Shown in pieces: positions 21,651 to 52,631 of a stretch of DNA of 64,000 nucleotides (position 1 is its first letter; every line of letters begins with the position of its first letter). Made by a program: the position numbers and the translations under genes. The stretch is from the sequence record NC_022968.1; one strand, given 5' to 3'. Below the pieces are notes generated by a model. The model was not told the DNA's origin and did not search any database. It saw nothing but the letters and a program-made list of their open reading frames with translations. This DNA comes from Escherichia phage 4MG.

Positions 21651-23354
21651 TTATGGAGCGTTTACCGACAGATAAGAACTATCATCTGCTGTCACAGTCT
21701 GTAGGGCTGCTGTAGCATGGATACGTGTTCCACCGTCAGCCACTGCCGTAATAAGTCCTGTGGAGCTTACTGTGGCGACAGTCGGGTCTTCACTTGAGAA
21801 GGTGATTGAGTAGCCGTCAAGGTTCTCTACACCCGCTGGTGTGACAGTGTATACCAATTGCTTGGTCTCACCAACAGTCATTGCAGAGAGACTATCTGTA
21901 GCCATTCCCATCGTAGAGGCATAACCACCAGAGGTATCTGTCAGAGTTGTTGCACTAGTCCCTGTCTTCGCCGTCATGGTGATATCAAATCCACCTTCCG
22001 CAACGAACGTCATTAATCCGTTAGCATCAACAGTTGCAAACTCTGGGTGACTTGAGCTAAACTGTAGGTCATAGATTTCAGCCCCAGGTGGGTCGATAGA
22101 CCACGTAAGCTGTTTCGTAGCACCAACAATCGCAACACCGATAGCGCCTGTCGTGATGGAATCTGCACGGATACCTTCGAAGGAATTCTCAGGAACGTTT
22201 GTGAAGTTACCAACCACAGTCGTTGATCCGAAAAATCCTTTAGGGTTACCAGTGTAGAACAGGTTACCATCGTAGACCATCCAATGCCCCAGTGTACCAC
22301 CCTGAGCCATGTTGTCTCCTTTTATCTCAGCAACAAAGGTCAGCTTACTCAGGTCCCAATCGGCCCCCGTAGGTACAGGGATGATGGTTGGCACAGTTAC
22401 AGCAGTGGTGGTGTTACCCAGTCCAAGGTTTCTCTGTGAATCACCGAGGGCATATAGAACACCATCAGCGATGAAGAATCTTGATTGTCCACCATCAAGA
22501 ACACGGAAAGTCGTAAAAGGACCGAACGTAGTAACTTTTGTATAGGCCCCGTTACTTGTTGTAATGCCACGGGTGTAAAGATAATGGTCGGTATCTGAAG
22601 CACCAGTAGAGGCGATTGCAATCGTGTTGTCTTCGTTGCACATCCACTCTTTTGCGTAGATGGTCCCGGTAGCCCCTGGGAATGTTACGCTGGCGAAGCT
22701 GGTGATTGGTGTAAATGACCCGTTAATACCGTAAGTAGAACCACATACACGAGGAACACCAACGTTGTTAAGATAGGTCACACAAGCATTCAGGCCAAAC
22801 GCACGGACACAGGAAGAACTAATTGTTCGCGGGATAGAGATCGGGTTTGAGTTTCCTGATCCCAGACATCCGTTTGCATTAGATCCGCTGCCATAAAGAG
22901 TTCCGTTGTTCATGACCCACAATGCGTTACCACCACCACCAACCACACTGACAAGGTTTGCCAGGTTAACAGTGCCAGTAATTGAAGATGGAAAACTGGT
23001 CCATGCCATCATGTTAGCCGTTGTACCTGTGAACTGACCTTGGTCACCCGCATATTGCCAGCCACCGCTATTATATTTTACAACAAAAGCCTTCCCAACA
23101 CCAAAAACATCTGCTACATTACTTGCAGCAAGCTTCCAGTGATCGTAAAATGGGCTGGTTGTTCCATCTGCACATTCACCCCAAGCGTTATCACCTTGGG
23201 TGTATAGTCTTCCGTCAGACAGCAGGATAGCCATAGATCTTTTAACACCTGTGGTCTGCTCTCTTGTGAAGGCAATCTTTTTTACCCCGCCTGGTGGCAG
23301 AGGTGTTGTCCCACCACCCGCCATTAGCAGGAAGAGACTTGGGATAGGAAACAT
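21651..23354 (-). CDS. fiber/virion protein with RCC1-like repeats and two Big_2-like Ig domains
   Basis: 567 aa; repeated LYxxGxNxxGxLG motifs; C-terminal Ig-like segments; AGGAGG SD. Confidence 0.55.
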   Translation of the reverse strand: MFPIPSLFLLMAGGGTTPLPPGGVKKIAFTREQTTGVKRSMAILLSDGRLYTQGDNAWGECADGTTSPFYDHWKLAASNVADVFGVGKAFVVKYNSGGWQYAGDQGQFTGTTANMMAWTSFPSSITGTVNLANLVSVVGGGGNALWVMNNGTLYGSGSNANGCLGSGNSNPISIPRTISSSCVRAFGLNACVTYLNNVGVPRVCGSTYGINGSFTPITSFASVTFPGATGTIYAKEWMCNEDNTIAIASTGASDTDHYLYTRGITTSNGAYTKVTTFGPFTTFRVLDGGQSRFFIADGVLYALGDSQRNLGLGNTTTAVTVPTIIPVPTGADWDLSKLTFVAEIKGDNMAQGGTLGHWMVYDGNLFYTGNPKGFFGSTTVVGNFTNVPENSFEGIRADSITTGAIGVAIVGATKQLTWSIDPPGAEIYDLQFSSSHPEFATVDANGLMTFVAEGGFDITMTAKTGTSATTLTDTSGGYASTMGMATDSLSAMTVGETKQLVYTVTPAGVENLDGYSITFSSEDPTVATVSSTGLITAVADGGTRIHATAALQTVTADDSSYLSVNAP

Positions 23355-45700: not shown

Positions 45701-46182
45701 TATACCCCCGAATCCTTACCTTTTGAAATTCTGAATGTTGTGGACTCTTTGAGGTCTCCATAATGGAACATCGCCTCTTTGAATCCCTTGACATCAGCCC
45801 AGGCATCAGATACTGTGTTGTGAGGGAAAAGTCCGGTGTCGATCACGAATTGGATTTTTCTCGCCCCGGCTTTACCAATCCTGTTGAGGATCGGGGTCAG
45901 GTTCTGACCACCCATTGCGAGATATGCAAACAGATCTTTTTGTAGTTTGTTCAGTTCCTTGTTAAAGGCAACTGCGGCACTGGTCATGAATGTACGAGCA
46001 GGTAGCCCGTTCCAGCCCTCTTGGTGAATCGCTGCGAGAGTCGCAGTATTAAGACCTGAGTAGTGAGGGTCATCGTAGTAACCGTATGATACTTGACGAT
46101 AATCAAGCACTTTGGTTGCCTTATAAAAGTTCTCTAACTGACTCAGATCTTGCTTACTTGTGAATTTTGGTCTCATAGCCAC
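45700..46182 (-). CDS. head-tail joining region protein (by position)
   Basis: 160 aa ORF. Confidence 0.35.
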   Translation of the reverse strand: MAMRPKFTSKQDLSQLENFYKATKVLDYRQVSYGYYDDPHYSGLNTATLAAIHQEGWNGLPARTFMTSAAVAFNKELNKLQKDLFAYLAMGGQNLTPILNRIGKAGARKIQFVIDTGLFPHNTVSDAWADVKGFKEAMFHYGDLKESTTFRISKGKDSGV

Positions 46183-46241
46183 ATCCGTTTAGGTATTTTA
46201 CCACATTATCTTAGCAAAATCAACGATCAAGCGAAGGATAA

Positions 46242-46760
46242 TTAACGAGGCCAGCGGTGAGGGTATCTACGGGGGATTCCCGGTACACCAGTCTGGGGTA
46301 CAATGCCTGCAACATCGAAAGGACCTCTTGAGTTTGGATTCCTTTTAACGCGAAGATATTCATCTTGACGAACACCGCCAACAATGACTAAACTTGATAC
46401 CGCGCTGAGGCAATCATTCACATAATCCGGGTTAGCTTGCAGCCAGTCTAGGAAGTCTTTCCAGTTCTGGTATGTAGATCCACCCTTGACCTGGATAGTC
46501 TCGTCACCGATCTTTTCCAGACGTTCTGTGATAGATGCTTCACCAGAGTTAACTTCTTGCAGGATTAACCAACGAACGACATCCACCATCGTGTTATAGA
46601 TAACACGCCACATGTCGCAAGGGGTTGCATCAGGATTAGGCCACCCGGCCTTTACCTTTTCAATTGCAAGGAATGCCAGAATTGTTTCATCAGGCAAGAC
46701 CTCTGGAGGAATTGACCCAAGGAGCAGTCGAATGTAATCAATAATTTCTTGGTCTGTCAT
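46242..46760 (-). CDS. hypothetical virion-module protein
   Basis: 172 aa ORF. Confidence 0.4.
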   Translation of the reverse strand: MTDQEIIDYIRLLLGSIPPEVLPDETILAFLAIEKVKAGWPNPDATPCDMWRVIYNTMVDVVRWLILQEVNSGEASITERLEKIGDETIQVKGGSTYQNWKDFLDWLQANPDYVNDCLSAVSSLVIVGGVRQDEYLRVKRNPNSRGPFDVAGIVPQTGVPGIPRRYPHRWPR

Positions 46761-46834
46761 TTTCGCTCCTGTTGGATTGCTCTTCTATTAATCAATATCT
46801 TATCATAAAAGATTCTATTTGTCATTAAAAAGAC

Positions 46835-46862
46835 TTGACAAGGCGTTATCACATGGTATATT
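46835..46862 (+). promoter_or_regulatory. sigma70-like promoter TTGACA-16-TATATT for the plus-strand moron
   Basis: TTGACA 46835..46840, TATATT 46857..46862, about 30 nt upstream of TAGGAGA SD. Confidence 0.55.
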
Positions 46863-46894
46863 AACCTTAATTAACGAACATAGGAGAACATTTT

Positions 46895-47299
46895 ATGAAG
46901 AATACTAAGGGAATTGTTTCACTGGCTGTCGGTGCTGTTGTTGCGGCTTTGGTGACGACCACCTACATCATGAAGCATCCAAATCTGGACAACATGCAAG
47001 CCATCGAATCAAGCTGGCTGTCGAAGGAAGAGAAAACAGCAAGTATCCATCGACTTGTGCGTTTGTCTTGCGACCAATCATTTCGTAAGGCATTTAAGCC
47101 TGGGGTGTCTGTAGTGCAGACAGGGGAGATGGATGAGATCACAGAGCAAGCAGAAGGCTATCAATATCTCAACGATGTGGCAATCCTCTATGGAACGAAA
47201 GGTTACAAAGGGGCATACATCTGCACATACTATAAAGATGGTAAAGAGCCTATGGTTAATGTGAATATGGAAGCGGGTGTTAAACCACTCCTAAAATAA
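46895..47299 (+). CDS. membrane-anchored/secreted moron protein
   Basis: 134 aa; N-terminal hydrophobic anchor; sole plus-strand gene inside minus-strand structural block; own promoter and terminator. Confidence 0.55.
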   Translation: MKNTKGIVSLAVGAVVAALVTTTYIMKHPNLDNMQAIESSWLSKEEKTASIHRLVRLSCDQSFRKAFKPGVSVVQTGEMDEITEQAEGYQYLNDVAILYGTKGYKGAYICTYYKDGKEPMVNVNMEAGVKPLLK

Positions 47300-47301
47300 A
47301 A

Positions 47302-47315
47302 GGCCCCGAAGGGCC
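47302..47315. terminator. bidirectional terminator hairpin
   Basis: GGCCC-CGAA-GGGCC with T-runs on both strands, between convergent genes. Confidence 0.6.
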
Positions 47316-47321
47316 TTATGA

Positions 47322-47621
47322 TTACGCCATAATACCAGCGGCTTTTAGTTTTGCCAGCAGAGCGTTAAAGTCAGTAACCAGACCAGCAGCATCAGTTGCT
47401 GTACTGTTTGCCTGAGTTGCAGCCATTTTAACGCCACCAACTACGCTTGTAGTCGCAGCCACAGGTGCGAAAGTGGTTGGTTTGCCTGTGATATCAGCCC
47501 AAGCTACAGAACCACCGCCACCAGATCCTGAGATAATATCAGCAACGCTGATTGATTGTCCAGTACCAAGGTCGATGAGTTTAGTTGCGTAAAGCAGACC
47601 AGCTACACCAGAAGTTGCCAT
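47322..47621 (-). CDS. small fiber-associated protein
   Basis: 99 aa; Gly-rich; ADITGKPTTFAP motif of the kind seen in tail fiber proteins (recalled, not verified). Confidence 0.4.
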   Translation of the reverse strand: MATSGVAGLLYATKLIDLGTGQSISVADIISGSGGGGSVAWADITGKPTTFAPVAATTSVVGGVKMAATQANSTATDAAGLVTDFNALLAKLKAAGIMA

Positions 47622-47634
47622 ATTTTATTTCTCC

Positions 47635-48279
47635 TTATAGGAATGAGTCGGGTAATGCAGGGATTGTTGCGATTGTGGAAGCTTGTTCCACTTGGTCAAG
47701 GTAAGACCAATAAGACTTCATCATTTCATACTGAGCACGAGAAACCTGTGTTACAAGGTCTTTCATTTCTGCATGGGTGAAGTCAGATTTGTATCCATCA
47801 AGGAATCGGAATGGGTAGACTTCTGAGGACTGATCCCCGTCTGCTTCCAGAACCGACTTAATGGAGAGAAGAGTCGCAAGGTCGAAGCTTTTAACTCTAA
47901 CTTTGTACTCAACATTGTCAACCGGATAAGGAATCCCGATATCAAGATCGCGAGATAGAATATTTTGAGCCGCAGCCTTGTAACTCTGCTTGGCAGATTC
48001 AAGGTTTGCTGCAATTTCTTCTGGCGTAAAATCTCTTGAGTTCCACGTCTGTTCCCATTGCTGAGTTTGGTCGTTGAAATGTGGAGCACCCTCAGTTACC
48101 ACATCACCAGTCGGAGGTGTGACAGGGATTACCGGAAAGTAGCCAAACTCAACAAGGTTCTCAGAATAAATCCAAGTACCGATGCTCACGTTAGGATTGT
48201 CTGCTCTGAAGTCAGCCAAGTAAACCGGATATCTCCCATCAGAAGACCTGATCATGGGTGTGTATGAATATACTACCAT
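47635..48279 (-). CDS. hypothetical protein downstream of collagen-like fiber
   Basis: 214 aa ORF. Confidence 0.4.
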   Translation of the reverse strand: MVVYSYTPMIRSSDGRYPVYLADFRADNPNVSIGTWIYSENLVEFGYFPVIPVTPPTGDVVTEGAPHFNDQTQQWEQTWNSRDFTPEEIAANLESAKQSYKAAAQNILSRDLDIGIPYPVDNVEYKVRVKSFDLATLLSIKSVLEADGDQSSEVYPFRFLDGYKSDFTHAEMKDLVTQVSRAQYEMMKSYWSYLDQVEQASTIATIPALPDSFL

Positions 48280-48295
48280 TTACTCTCCTTGAGAA

Positions 48296-48309
48296 GGGGC
48301 CGAAGCCCC
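48296..48309 (-). other. intercistronic UUCG tetraloop hairpin
   Basis: Minus-strand GGGGC-UUCG-GCCCC between fiber stop and next SD. Confidence 0.4.
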
Positions 48310-48313
48310 TTTA

Positions 48314-50941
48314 TTAGTTGACAGTAAGAGAGGTTGTACCTGTCAGGTTTGTACCATCCCAAAGGATCGTAACAACTGTGCGGGTAGTTCCCAAAGTAAC
48401 CGCCGTACCGTTTGACCATGCTAAGTTTCCAGGCCACGTCAGTGACGCACCAGAACCTGTGAACACGATAACGATTGTCATTGCCCTGTTTGCAGGCAAA
48501 TTAGTAAAGCTCATGGTTTTGTTCGCTGTACCATCAACCTTGAAGACCTGAGACACGCTAACATCCATAGCTCCAGTTGAAGAAGTTACCAGAAGGTCGT
48601 AACGATCCAGTTTCTTCCATGCACTGTTTACACGAACGTAATAGCCGCTGTCAGCAGGGGCTTCAAGAACTGGCACATCTACCCAACCAGAACTTGTACG
48701 CGCCTGTGGCGTTGTTGAGGAGGTATCGTAGACGTTACCACCACCCATGTATCCCAGAGAAGCCCATACCGTAGCAGAAGTCTTCTGGAAATACTCAAGG
48801 GTGCTTTTGTTGATGAAGTAGTCACCAACACGTCCATCAGCAGGCCCTGGGTTACGTGGGAAGTTCAACCAAAGCGTACCTTGGTCACCTTTCACACCCT
48901 GGATACCCTGAGTACCTTGTGGACCCTGAGGTCCAGTTGGTCCAGCAGGCCCCGTAGGTCCTACGAATCCACCAACGTTGATCCAGTCATTGTCTGTTAC
49001 ACTCCAAACCCACAGGTCTGTTCCGATGATCCAGCCGTCACCTTCAGTACCTGTTGCTGGTAGATCAGCTTCAGATGCTTTGGTTCCTAGAGGTTTAATA
49101 CCAGCGCCCTGGTCTCCTTTAGGTCCTTGTGGGCCTGTTGGTCCGGTAGGACCTGCATCACCCTTCGGACCCTGTGGTCCATCAACACCTTGGAGTCCTT
49201 GGATACCCTGGTCTCCCTGAGGTCCTCGCATTACACCCAAGTTGGCCCAGTCAGAACCTGTAAAGGCAAAGCCCTCCCCGGTATCTACTGTGGTGTAATA
49301 ATCCCCATGAGATGCCCCAACCGGAAGGTCTGCTTCTGTTGGTACTGTTCCAAGAGGGTTAAGCGGAACACCCATTGGACCCTCAGGCCCTTGAGCACCA
49401 TCAGCACCAGCAGGCCCTGTATCTCCGGTGTCACCTTTAGGACCCTGAGGTCCATCAACACCTTGTGGACCCTGTGGGCCTGTAGGCCCGGTATCACCAG
49501 TGTCACCTTTATCGCCCTTCGGACCTACATATGGACCAACGTTGATCCACTGTGCATCAGATTGACTCCAGACATACAGGTTTGGTACAATGATCCAAGC
49601 ATCACCAGATGTTCCTGTCGCAGGAAGTTCAGATGTGGCACCTTTCGTACCGAGAACGCGAGCACTGTAACCTGTTTCACCACGGTCGCCCTTCGGACCT
49701 ACTGGTCCTTGAGGTCCAACTGGTCCGGTAAGGCCCGTGTCGCCCTTATCTCCTTTCGGACCTACGGGTCCCTGGATACCCTGTGCGCCGTCATTTCCCT
49801 GAGGACCCTGAGGTCCTGTTGGTCCGGTTGGACCTTGATCGCCTTTCTGTCCCTGTGGACCCTGAGGACCAACGTCACCATCGTCGCCTTTTGGCCCCTG
49901 AACAGGACCGATATCTTCCCATGCACCGTCAGAAGTCCACACCCAAACATGATTATCTGTTTGAACAACCCAAGCATCAGCAACGGCGTTGCCGAAAGCA
50001 GGAAGATCTGCGGTGGTGGCTTTTGTACCTTTCAGTTTAACAATGGCGGCATCGTTACCTTTATCGCCCTTCGGACCCTGAGGTCCTTGTGCGCCAGTAA
50101 GCCCTTGGATACCTTGAACACCCTGATCGCCTTTCTCACCACGATCACCTTTGTCACCTTTAGGTCCTTGTGGCCCTGTGGCACCAGTCGCACCCTGAGG
50201 CCCTGTTGGACCTACCTGACCAACTGGTTGCCAACCGTCAGCAGCGCCAGTCCATACCCACATCTGTTCTTGGACGATATAAGTATCACCCTCAGTGTTT
50301 CCTTCTGTAGGCAGGAATGCTGTGTCTGTGAAAGAGCCTTTGATTACAAGACCGATACCGTCCTGCCCTTGTGGACCTGCGAAGTCTCCAAGGTCAACCC
50401 ATTGCTGGTTTACAACAGTCCAGTAGTGTGTTCCAATAACGTATGTGTCGCCTTCCTGCATGGTTGATGCAGGTGGGAGTTGGGAAGGGTCTCCCAGAAT
50501 ACCTTGGATGTAAATACCAACACCCGGTTCACCTTGCGGCCCCTGGTCACCCTTATCCCCCTTTTCACCAGGTGGGACATACAGCCCCTCTTCACCTGGA
50601 TCAGTAACCTCAACAAGGGTGTTTCCATCCTTACTTGAGATCGGAATAACGATTTGAGGAGGAGCAACATACAGCTTTCCACCCGCCAATACAAGCAGGT
50701 TGTCACTGATTGTGCTGACACCAACGGAAAGACCGTCAGCACCAGCCACAAGAGCATTTCCGGAAGCAGGATCTACAATAACAGTTGCCTTCAGTGGGGT
50801 AGTGGATGTACCATTACCGAGAAGTGTGACGGTGGTCGTATCTTCCGTATGGAATTGACCATCATCAACAAAGGTCTCACCTGCACCGCCCTCAGGAAGG
50901 ATCAGTTCAGCGTTGACGACCTTATCATTGTAATCTGCCAT
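48314..50941 (-). CDS. collagen-like (Gly-X-Y repeat) fiber protein
   Basis: 875 aa; multiple uninterrupted GXY blocks (e.g. [28 protein letters not shown]); AAGGGG SD. Confidence 0.65.
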
Positions 50942-50950
50942 TTTTACCCC

Positions 50951-51484
50951 TTATTTTGCAGGCTCTAGTTCTTCAAGAGCAGCCTTGAAGTCAGCCATCA
51001 TGTTTTCGAAAGATTTGTTTTTCGCAAGGGTGATACCTTTGGTTGCAGCAAGATCAGCAAGTTTATCTTTGCTTCCTTTCTTATCAGCTTCATCATTAAG
51101 GGCTTCTGCCTGAGCCAGAATAGCTTCATAGCTTGCAGATTTAACCTCAACAACCTCAGTCTTGACATCTTCAACCTTAGGCGCTACAGTCGCTTCTACT
51201 GCCTTACCGCGACGGTTAGGGTTTGGAAGAGCACTGTTGAAAAATACGATGTATGTACCCATACGCAGTGTGGAATGTTCAGCATCAACATCCAGTCCGG
51301 AGATCTCTGCAAGAGCTTTGAAGAAGTCAACGGAGTTGCGGAAAGCTTTGTGCTCTTTTCCAACACAGAATCCATTCAGAGGAAGACGTGCTGATACCCC
51401 AACATTCAGGTCAGGAGCATAAGTGCCGAAGAATTTGAACAGTTCTACTTTGTTCGGGAAAATACGATAGTTTTGATTAGCCAT
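50951..51484 (-). CDS. hypothetical head-module protein
   Basis: ATG 51484 after GGAG; track ORF extends to GTG 51517. Confidence 0.4.
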   Translation of the reverse strand: MANQNYRIFPNKVELFKFFGTYAPDLNVGVSARLPLNGFCVGKEHKAFRNSVDFFKALAEISGLDVDAEHSTLRMGTYIVFFNSALPNPNRRGKAVEATVAPKVEDVKTEVVEVKSASYEAILAQAEALNDEADKKGSKDKLADLAATKGITLAKNKSFENMMADFKAALEELEPAK

Positions 51485-51617
51485 AAAATCTCCATTGGTT
51501 ACCTTAGTAAAAACCACTTGACACCAGTCATGAAGTGGCTATTATTAAGGTGACGAAAATAAAAAAGGGAGAGGTGAATAATCACCTCCCCCTCTTAGAG
51601 GTAGCAGTTACGCTATC

Positions 51618-52631
51618 TTATGCGAAAGTACCAGTAGAGCGAACAACCAGTTCCGGACGGGTGTTAACAGTCAGGAAGGAAGTTTCGGACTCAACCTTTT
51701 CTTCGCGCAGGTATGCAGAAGATTTGTACCACAGGTACAGTTCTTGTGCAGGAGTGTTCGCGTCACGAACGTCATCTGCTGGTGCATAGTGAATCTGGAA
51801 CATGTCGTCGATTCCTTGCGGCAGAATGTAAGCTTCACCATCAGGGATGTAGTTGGAGATATCCTCGATGTAAGTTACGTTCTTGTGAACAAACATACGG
51901 TTGTTGGCGTTTTCCTGCCCTTGACCCAGACGACGACGAAGCGGCTCTTGAGTAGAAGAGTAGTATTGGTAAGCGTTCATTACCAGCGGATGAGCGATCA
52001 GCGCTGAGAACCACTTACGAGAAGCCAGAACTACGATGTTGTAGTTGTTACCGTTGTCACCAGCATTGTCGATGATGTACGCACGAGCGTCAGCTTCGAT
52101 GATGTCGGTTGGGTCGGTTGCTACATCGGTGAAGTCGATGTTAGCTGTGTGCTGAGTAACACCCCACTCGGTGAAGTAGTTGTACTGAGCAGTTGGGTCC
52201 TGTGGTGCCCAGGATTTACCCATGATCGCCTGAAGCATTGCTTTTTCTTTCAGTTGTTCATGAGAGATGCGGATACGACGAACCACACGAGCAACAACAT
52301 CTTCTACAGTCTTCGGAGCGTCAGCAGTAAAATACTTACGGAAGTTCTGTACGTCTGCCGCTGTGATCTGACGATCCAGTGGGAAGAACGGAATGTTGAA
52401 GTTTCTCAGTTGGGCCTTTTCAGTACCAACGTAGTTACGTTCACCCTGACGACGACGAGCCGGGAAGTCAGTTACAACTTCATCAACACGTTCGATCTGA
52501 GCGATAGTCGTTACACCGTGGTACGCTGTGAACAGGTCCATATTGGTGATCAGACGGTACTGACGTGGTACGATTTCCAGAGTCGCGCCGAGATCGACGA
52601 TCTGGAAGTCATTAGTGCGTACTACTGCCAT
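51618..52631 (-). CDS. major capsid protein (lambda gpE-like by size and gene order)
   Basis: 337 aa; follows a small decoration-like gene and a scaffold-like gene in portal-protease-scaffold-D-E order. Confidence 0.55.
   Translation of the reverse strand: MAVVRTNDFQIVDLGATLEIVPRQYRLITNMDLFTAYHGVTTIAQIERVDEVVTDFPARRRQGERNYVGTEKAQLRNFNIPFFPLDRQITAADVQNFRKYFTADAPKTVEDVVARVVRRIRISHEQLKEKAMLQAIMGKSWAPQDPTAQYNYFTEWGVTQHTANIDFTDVATDPTDIIEADARAYIIDNAGDNGNNYNIVVLASRKWFSALIAHPLVMNAYQYYSSTQEPLRRRLGQGQENANNRMFVHKNVTYIEDISNYIPDGEAYILPQGIDDMFQIHYAPADDVRDANTPAQELYLWYKSSAYLREEKVESETSFLTVNTRPELVVRSTGTFA

Follow-up and report, generated by a model that had tools for sequence, protein, structure and literature searches.

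Morons, a concept due to Hendrix and Juhala, are autonomous promoter-gene-terminator units of lambdoid temperate phages. Small envelope proteins are also made by phages that are strictly virulent. Phage T5 makes Llp, a 'lytic conversion' protein, early in infection and the llp gene adjoins the gene for receptor binding (PMC9586334; Decker et al. 1994, cited there). Similarly, virulent phage T4 expresses the envelope protein Spackle early (PMC7677548).

We focused on a gene whose closest described relatives are PVP-SE1 gp66 (ADP02461.1), GAP31_206 (AFC21387.1), Av05_0081 and KB57_068. All are members of PHROG 11434 ('membrane protein'). Gene 66 of PVP-SE1 is labelled 'hypothetical membrane protein, 1 transmembrane domain', the single domain being noted in the record from TMHMM and Octopus. 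The label for GAP31_206 is 'putative membrane protein'. The PVP-SE1 genes 60 and 61, near gp66, are labelled 'structural protein' and gp66 does not carry that label. This is a weak hint that gp66 is a non-virion protein. In the literature searched, we found no proposed function for the gp66 family, no experiment or transcriptome concerning it and no transcriptome for any Seunavirus or Mydovirus. The Mydo genome announcement makes no mention of lysis or membrane proteins.

The gene was analysed in a 64,000-nucleotide stretch of phage DNA, referred to below as the window. The encoded protein matches the PHROG 11434 profile from residue 1 to 134 of the 134-position profile (E 2.6e-72). Identity to the window protein is 90% for GAP31 and EC152, 73% for PVP-SE1, 46% for Av-05 and 40% for KB57 and Mydo. 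The window gene and its four named orthologues have the same length, position, strand, promoter and terminator; nothing essential differs. Hence, public records have shown the gene, including its unusual orientation, since about 2011 and the window copy is a new allele. The present analysis contributes a footprint of the promoter, a distribution limited to one clade, a predicted fold and a hypothesis that can be tested. Briefly, the cassette is a clade-fixed accessory expression unit of PVP-SE1-like Vequintavirinae, encompassing Seunavirus, Avunavirus and Mydovirus.

The region surrounding the gene has 81–92% DNA identity to Enterobacter phage EC152, Cronobacter phage GAP31, E. coli phage LNA4 and Salmonella phages PVP-SE1 and SSE121. 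For these phages, every recorded genus is Seunavirus, within the subfamily Vequintavirinae. The window genome is a Seunavirus-like member of this subfamily; it is rV5-like (PVP-SE1-type) and virulent. The initial annotation had remarked that such a gene was out of keeping with an apparently virulent genome. The genome is indeed of a lytic lineage, the Vequintavirinae (PMC3606486), but the pairing is not anomalous; T5 Llp and T4 Spackle are precedents.

The promoter, gene and terminator

The window contains an ATG-start open reading frame (ORF) of 134 codons at positions 46895–47299 of the plus strand, according to the ORF listing. We counted ORFs of at least 90 amino acids, leaving out those nested within a longer ORF. 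Between positions 21651 and 60064 every other such ORF is on the minus strand. The gene is the lone exception and the only plus-strand gene of a minus-strand virion module of ~38 kb, as the initial annotation had noticed. Products of this module include baseplate, tail-fibre, tail-spike, tape-measure, sheath, tail terminator and head-completion proteins. Also encoded are Neck1, adaptor, head-fibre, collagen-like fibre and major capsid proteins. A minus-strand gene (47322–47621) converges on the ORF and ends at a hairpin common to both. The GC content of the gene is 0.447, compared to 0.471 +/- 0.027 for the window. This is the 15th percentile and, hence, base composition is ordinary. An Rfam scan of positions 46000–52000 gave no meaningful match. 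The features of the locus are as follows.

46797–46825, minus strand: divergent promoter-like element of the adaptor/neck/tail operon, ATGACA-N14-TGATAAGAT; context, outside the cassette
46827–46831, plus strand: UP-element-like A-tract of the promoter, AAAAA just 5' of the -35 hexamer
46835–46840, plus strand: -35 hexamer TTGACA, perfect consensus and invariant in 14 of 14 sequences
46854–46862, plus strand: extended -10 element TG-G-TATATT (TG at 46854–46855, TATATT at 46857–46862)
46882–46886, plus strand: Shine-Dalgarno sequence AGGAG, 8 nt 5' of the ATG, read from the sequence
46895–47299, plus strand: coding sequence, 134 amino acids, orthologue of PVP-SE1 gp66 and GAP31_206, member of PHROG 11434
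46910–46969, plus strand: codons of the N-terminal transmembrane signal-anchor, residues ~6–25 (hydrophobicity, AlphaFold helix, PVP-SE1 record)
46976–47296, plus strand: codons of the predicted periplasmic cystatin-like alpha-beta(4) domain, residues 28–134
47069–47071 and 47222–47224, plus strand: codons of the invariant cysteines C59 and C110, respectively
47300–47317, both strands: GC-rich hairpin, bidirectional terminator (folding, conservation, PVP-SE1 annotation)

A strong sigma70-like promoter specific to the gene had been proposed, with TTGACA and TATATT separated by 16 bp. This was borne out by a promoter scanner, which scored the site at 46835–46862 as 11/12 plus TG. When both strands of the whole 64 kb were scanned, the site ranked first among sigma70-like sequences. 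The Shine-Dalgarno sequence in the same annotation is also present, and its GGAG is kept across relatives. We then compared 14 distinct upstream sequences of relatives. The TTGACA hexamer was unchanged, and its spacing from the -10 element was constant at 16 bp, in all 14. In the extended -10 element TG was present in 13/14 sequences, as was TAnnnT (13/14). An A-tract was found at equal distance from the -35 hexamer in every case (14/14). Conversely, 13 bases of the spacer were essentially randomised. Hence, the pattern is that expected from selection on RNA-polymerase contacts alone. The same pattern is present in L017, the source of P0019, which is the most divergent family member found. The upstream motif AAAA(A/C)NNCTTGACA is enriched in the window (4 matches, 0.68 expected). 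This footprint is a natural example of selection on an UP element, -35 hexamer and extended -10 element with the spacer left free.

The -35 hexamers of the cassette promoter and the divergent minus-strand element are back to back, at 46835–46840 and 46820–46825, respectively, and are separated by 9 bp. The minus-strand element (46825–46797) is nearly invariant across genera and resembles the rV5 late motif TggTAaAAtA (PMC3606486). The invariant CTTGACA of the cassette promoter is partly palindromic (TTGTCAAG), with CTTGACAA being nearly palindromic, and adjoins this conserved minus-strand promoter. Hence, part of its conservation could serve the minus-strand promoter. Sigma70-like promoters occur genome-wide in rV5-type phages (PMC3606486) and so a consensus promoter is no proof of early-only expression. 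A second conserved plus-strand promoter, having the same upstream motif and lacking an ORF, is located at position 51518 of the same module.

The hairpin (AAGGCCCCGAAGGGCCTT, positions 47300–47317) lies directly 3' of the stop codon. The predicted folding energy is -12.2 kcal/mol for the plus strand (z -3.0 compared to shuffled sequences) and -14.1 kcal/mol for the minus strand (z -3.4). For the minus strand, the hairpin is followed by a canonical U-tract (UUUUAUUUU). The plus-strand U-tract of the window is weaker (UUAUGAUU) and a terminator scanner called the minus-strand site only. The corresponding plus-strand tail in relatives is TTTATATT. The PVP-SE1 record lists rho-independent terminators for each of the two strands. 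The hairpin is kept in all relatives, and in Av-05 a G-C pair is replaced by A-T in a compensatory change. Hence, of the bidirectional terminator initially proposed, the hairpin on both strands stands, while the plus-strand U-tract of the window is weaker than such a description implies. Together, these sequence comparisons suggest that the cassette promoter and terminator are functional. The pair, comprising an apparently early promoter and a bidirectional terminator, could be used to engineer PVP-SE1-like, KB57-like and Av-05-like phages.

Distribution and selection

A tblastn search of 50,697 phage records identified 64 that carry the protein. Those carriers whose taxonomy was checked are all Seunavirus, Avunavirus (Av-05) or Mydovirus (KB57, Mydo, Ro1). 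An adaptor protein at least 80% identical to that of the window was found in 63 records. Hence, the gene is retained essentially clade-wide. Carrier phages infect Salmonella, Cronobacter, Enterobacter, E. coli, Klebsiella, Raoultella and Proteus. Synteny is constant in every Seunavirus, Avunavirus and Mydovirus examined: a PhiTE-type adaptor gene (PF26075), the gene on the opposite strand and then a head-fibre-like gene. This extends to the most divergent members, P0019, P0018 and P0016, which are metagenome-derived. The layout of promoter, gene and terminator recurs in every relative found and, therefore, is not due to chance.

We examined the equivalent junction in rV5, CR3, Hena1, A73, ABPH49 and Aeromonas phage 2L372X. 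In these phages, the opposite-strand gene upstream of the adaptor is absent. For rV5, CR3 and Hena1, where the junction was aligned, a terminator and promoter-like sequence alone separate the fibre and adaptor genes. We also considered that the junction might be a hot spot for different morons. This was rejected because these six phages, from other rV5-related lineages, have nothing inserted there.

Larger databases gave the same result. A search of 5.8 billion proteins returned 17 clusters, and a profile search of 1.84 billion representatives returned 4 true ones (at 50% identity). All are from the same phage clade. Weaker matches in these searches were long repetitive proteins and were judged spurious. 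Relatives of gp66 were not found outside the phage clade in IMG/VR, in a plasmid search or, as true relatives, in 185,579 bacterial and archaeal genomes (one per species). The sole match in the prokaryotic genomes was a chance 'SSWLSQEEKD' motif in an MFS transporter of Acidobacteria. Since relatives are absent from bacteria, prophages and plasmids, the gene lies outside the prophage conversion gene pool. By these sequence searches, the gp66 family is specific to one clade of virulent phages. The initial annotation had described the gene as a moron, of the lysogenic-conversion or superinfection-exclusion type. Its own promoter and terminator, and its insertion at an operon boundary, fit the first part of this description. 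Recent or sporadic acquisition does not, given three genera and ordinary GC content, and the lack of relatives among prophages, bacterial genomes and plasmids contradicts a lysogenic-conversion origin. A function in superinfection exclusion is plausible.

Pairwise dN/dS values range from 0.04 (window and GAP31) to about 0.35. However, dN for the gene exceeds that of the adjacent adaptor and Neck1 genes by a factor of 3–4. Thus, judged from substitution rates, purifying selection acts on the protein, yet its rate of evolution is 3–4 times that of its neighbours. Such a rate is expected of genes involved in interactions with a host or competitor. Between the window and GAP31, dS is 0.97 for the gene compared to 0.22–0.23 for the flanking genes; a fourfold increase. 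In a sliding profile, nucleotide identity to GAP31 falls from 95–100% to 72–87% exactly at the -35 hexamer and stays low through the fibre genes. Hence, the gene groups with the fibre side of the boundary, which is mosaic and evolves rapidly.

Dispensability for plaque growth is typical of accessory and exclusion genes. In eight related Klebsiella phage records (K54_rec1-6, K54lambda1.1.1), the match to the protein ends at residue about 115. Alignment of one, K54_rec4, identified a 1-nt deletion that shifts the reading frame at ~codon 115, with loss of the last strand and helix. If the frameshift is genuine, viability of the K54 lineage suggests that the gene is dispensable for plaque growth. 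Alternatively, the frameshift could be a sequencing error common to the related records.

Predicted topology and fold

Residues ~6–25 of the window protein are hydrophobic, with a Kyte-Doolittle mean of 2.1 over 19 residues. All 18 family members compared have a 19–20-residue segment with a mean of at least 2.0. Each of the 18 also has one or two Lys or Arg residues N-terminal to this segment and none has a lipobox. Basic residues, strong hydrophobicity and no lipobox make a stable signal-anchor, oriented N-in and C-out, most likely. The window protein has two cysteines, C59 and C110, and both are invariant in the family. Hence, the N-terminal anchor and cysteine-containing domain of the 134-residue protein, as initially annotated, were recovered. 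Other invariant residues are S40-W41-(L42-S43), E46, R53, D60, F63, R64, F67 and P69, together with E84, Q90, G106-x-Y108-I109-C110 and K114.

We modelled the protein using AlphaFold2 and an alignment of 18 sequences (pLDDT 89.7, pTM 0.75). The model has helices at residues 2–27, 34–38 (short) and 44–64 (long), plus a C-terminal helix. Four antiparallel strands span residues 72–84, 88–99, 102–113 and 120–125. The predicted fold is a cystatin-like alpha-beta(4) module that follows an N-terminal transmembrane helix. C59 and C110 probably form a disulfide, within a domain expected to be periplasmic. The invariant residues S40-W41-L42-S43, E46, E84-Q85, Q90, K114, G116 and P119 would be at the membrane-anchor end of this domain. 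The opposite turn, residues 100–105, is variable in the family alignment. From the modelled strand order, the functional surface would be turned towards the inner membrane.

Searches of Pfam, NCBIfam, PADLOC and PDB sequences gave no family match. With Pfam E-values up to 10, only XRCC1_N and DUF5831 were listed and both are below threshold. Foldseek searches of the PDB and BFVD found nothing significant outside the gp66 family.

Candidate functions and known counterparts

Our preferred interpretation, which is tentative, is that the cassette encodes an early lytic-conversion protein. This would remodel the envelope of the infected cell, most likely for superinfection exclusion at the inner membrane. 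Briefly, unmodified host sigma70 RNA polymerase would recognise the near-consensus promoter once phage DNA enters the cell, independent of the virion operons. A monocistronic mRNA of about 450 nt would result, stopping at the hairpin common to the converging fibre operon. The 134-residue product would become a type II (N-in, C-out) signal-anchor protein of the inner membrane. The ~105-residue periplasmic domain would adopt the cystatin-like alpha-beta(4) fold, probably held by a C59-C110 disulfide, with the conserved loops placed at the membrane-proximal end. The protein would then bind a component at the inner-membrane surface and block genome delivery by later phages.

Slightly more doubtful is a broader proposal, that the protein founds an unrecognised class of lytic-conversion proteins. 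Members would be inner-membrane-anchored, disulfide-stapled and cystatin-like, and would be expressed from a host-sigma70 early promoter antisense in a late virion module. They would block translocation of the superinfecting genome at the inner membrane or neutralise a host defence located in the envelope. Such a class would have a de novo origin in one clade of virulent Vequintavirinae, with no prophage or bacterial counterpart. There are many proposals to use PVP-SE1-like, KB57-like and Av-05-like phages for biocontrol or therapy, targeting Salmonella, Cronobacter, Klebsiella and E. coli. Hence, if an early envelope protein does exclude other phages or change the cell surface, this bears on cocktail design and phage competition. 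In that case, the few exclusion proteins of virulent phages would also gain a new structural type, cystatin-like and inner-membrane-anchored.

Other roles were considered. T4 RI has an N-terminal membrane or signal-anchor-release (SAR) segment and a small periplasmic domain. T-type (class III) holins have one transmembrane helix and a disulfide-containing periplasmic domain. The gp66 topology, with an N-terminal transmembrane helix, predicted periplasmic globular domain and cysteine pair, would suit a lysis-timing component of either type; an RI-like antiholin or holin partner, or a T-type holin. The Gly/Ala/Ser/Thr fraction of the transmembrane segment (0.32–0.53) is SAR-like, a conserved membrane-proximal end would be apt for binding another bitopic membrane protein and the holin of rV5-type phages is not firmly identified (PMC3606486). 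However, Kyte-Doolittle means of at least 2.0 argue for a stable anchor and are too high to support a releasable SAR domain. Furthermore, the gene is far from any recognised lysis gene, its promoter is of an early-type sigma70 consensus unlike the neighbouring late-type motif and the six phages without the gene at the junction still lyse. A role in lysis timing is therefore improbable. Somewhat less so, though still unlikely, is a periplasmic inhibitor or host-takeover factor. Here, a cystatin- or latexin-like domain would bind, and inhibit, a periplasmic host protease, peptidoglycan hydrolase, or sensor of envelope defence or abortive infection, so protecting the infection rather than excluding other phages. 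From strand order, the E84-Q85 hairpin and K114-x-G116-x-x-P119 would correspond in position to wedge loops L1 and L2 of cystatins, and the broad list of carrier hosts fits a target conserved across Enterobacterales. Conversely, the cystatin signature motifs QxVxG and PW are absent, the fold match is generic (identity of about 10% or less) and no candidate target was identified. In addition, the inner-membrane anchor and short linker would limit the reach of the domain to the membrane surface.

It is also conceivable, though highly improbable, that the transcription unit matters and not the protein. In this case, the antisense promoter and common terminator would be an insulator or switch between the head-fibre and adaptor/neck/tail operons, acting by occlusion of the back-to-back minus-strand promoter or by collision with read-through transcription. 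In keeping with this, the promoter and terminator are more tightly conserved than the coding sequence, being essentially identical in L017, which encodes P0019. The proximity of the two -35 hexamers, and the conserved ORF-less promoter at 51518 with the same upstream motif, are also compatible. However, the ORF is intact in nearly all members, dN/dS is well below 1, the cysteines are invariant and the fold is confidently predicted. Hence, the protein itself is under selection. Moreover, a terminator and promoter suffice at this operon boundary in relatives lacking the gene. Our preferred, tentative interpretation is superinfection exclusion, or protection of the envelope, at the inner membrane, since the nearest precedents in function are T5 Llp and T4 Spackle and Imm.

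Sequence and motif comparisons place the protein outside the Llp/Cor, Imm, Sp, RI and cystatin groups and, as judged from sequence, outside VirB8. The similarity to cystatins is that of the modelled alpha-beta(4) fold, in which a helix lies on a curved sheet. Identity to cystatin and latexin is 4–11% and Foldseek E-values are not significant, so this is a fold-level resemblance only. The cystatin inhibitory motifs (N-terminal Gly, QxVxG and PW hairpins) are lacking and the equivalent loops are E-Q-x-E and K-D-G-x-x-P. VirB8, TraE and DotI have a domain of ~140 residues that forms a full NTF2 cone, whereas the window protein has a predicted domain of about 95 residues with one long helix and four strands. 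There is also no sequence similarity to these proteins and no secretion-system context.

Like a moron, the cassette is an autonomous unit located between two operons that abut in related phages. It differs in belonging to a virulent phage, in being fixed in three genera, in its ordinary composition and in having no prophage relatives. T5 Llp is comparable as a small envelope protein of a virulent phage, with its gene among late structural and fibre genes. Llp is expressed early (PMC9586334); early expression of the window gene is suggested by the promoter. However, Llp is an outer-membrane lipoprotein that binds FhuA (PMC9586334), while the window protein has a predicted inner-membrane anchor and an unrelated fold and sequence. 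A lipoprotein of the Llp/Cor type was rejected because [LVI][ASTVI][GAS]C is absent from the window protein, and cysteines in the hydrophobic segment of some members do not fit a lipobox. T4 Spackle and Imm, from a virulent myovirus, are made early, are located in the periplasm or inner membrane and prevent later phages from entering (PMC7677548). For a Spackle-like target, we looked for a lysozyme domain in the tail and baseplate proteins of the window and none was found. Membership of the T4 Imm, Sp or RI families was also rejected, since no Pfam or NCBIfam model matched. Hence, on the interpretation that we favour, the window protein would share the logic of these T4 and T5 systems while being unrelated as a protein.

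Mosaic boundary and frameshift at the membrane gene

We compared the region around the plus-strand membrane-protein gene with related phages. Against Cronobacter phage GAP31, a sharp mosaic boundary was evident in the stretch from approximately 46835 to approximately 48300. The -35 hexamer of the membrane gene's sigma70-like promoter (the 46835 promoter) divides two levels of nucleotide identity: 95-100% on its left, and 72-87% on its right, across the membrane gene and the fibre-associated genes. The membrane gene has a synonymous divergence from GAP31 of 0.97, four times the value for the adjacent neck genes (0.22). Distances between proteins disagree with one another too, in that PVP-SE1 is the closer phage for the membrane protein and FENT2 for the neighbouring proteins.

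Compared with KB57, Klebsiella phage vB_Kpn_K54_rec4 has lost 1 nt (AAAGATGGT to AAAGA-GGT, locus position ~880), and its membrane-protein gene goes out of frame at about codon 115. The same truncated match to the membrane protein recurs in the related K54_rec and K54lambda records. The carriers are viable recombinant phages of common ancestry. Either the membrane gene is dispensable or a sequencing error is common to the records.

The family's invariant motif, SSWLSxEEK, also occurs in an MFS transporter of an Acidobacteria MAG (L025, 4449-5810), where an LPDSPLE segment precedes it. We rejected this transporter as a relative; it is an unrelated protein and the match was judged to be chance. 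Hence, SSWLSxEEK by itself is not a sufficient criterion for recognising relatives of the membrane protein.

Fibre and spike proteins

Two further minus-strand genes encode fibre- or spike-like proteins.

47322-47621, minus strand: head-fibre-like protein, C-terminal match to PF11133
30193-32331, minus strand: tail-spike-like protein of 711 aa, PHROG 6117 ("colanic acid degradation", E 1.7e-294)

The head-fibre-like protein has a Gly-rich central segment (47440-47500, minus strand). No alignment with GAP31, PVP-SE1 or FENT2 was obtained here, and identity drops to 0-0.25. This mismatch marks the segment as an indel-prone linker. The N-terminal ~110 residues of the 711-aa spike are common to the family of the adjacent 223-aa fibre protein (PHROG 7760). 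The spike thus resembles a modular depolymerase whose anchor domain can be exchanged.

Promoter-like elements in and at the edge of the structural module

Besides the 46835 promoter, three regions carry promoters or promoter-like sequence.

63062-63124, minus strand: two tandem sigma70-like promoters, TTGATA-17-TAAAAT and TTGACA-17-TAACAT, with extended -10 elements
51518-51545, plus strand: sigma70-like promoter, AAAACCACTTGACA-N16-TATTAT, with a hairpin at 51567-51593
46797-46825, minus strand: divergent promoter-like element, ATGACA-N14-TGATAAGAT, nearly invariant, upstream of the adaptor/neck/tail operon

Lying at the structural-module edge, the tandem pair probably provides strong early promoter activity. 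A small minus-strand gene starts downstream of them, near 63055.

The 51518-51545 promoter has an upstream motif in common with the 46835 promoter and is kept in GAP31, PVP-SE1, KB57 and one metagenomic relative. It is intergenic, lying just downstream of the major-capsid gene and before the next minus-strand gene. No ORF was found downstream on the plus strand. The promoter is directed toward the minus-strand terminator and 3' end of the capsid gene. Its product may thus be an antisense or small RNA.

The -35 hexamers of the 46797-46825 element and the 46835 promoter are 9 bp apart. Such a back-to-back layout could link early transcription to late. The late motif described in phage rV5 is TggTAaAAtA (PMC3606486), and the minus-strand element is similar to it.
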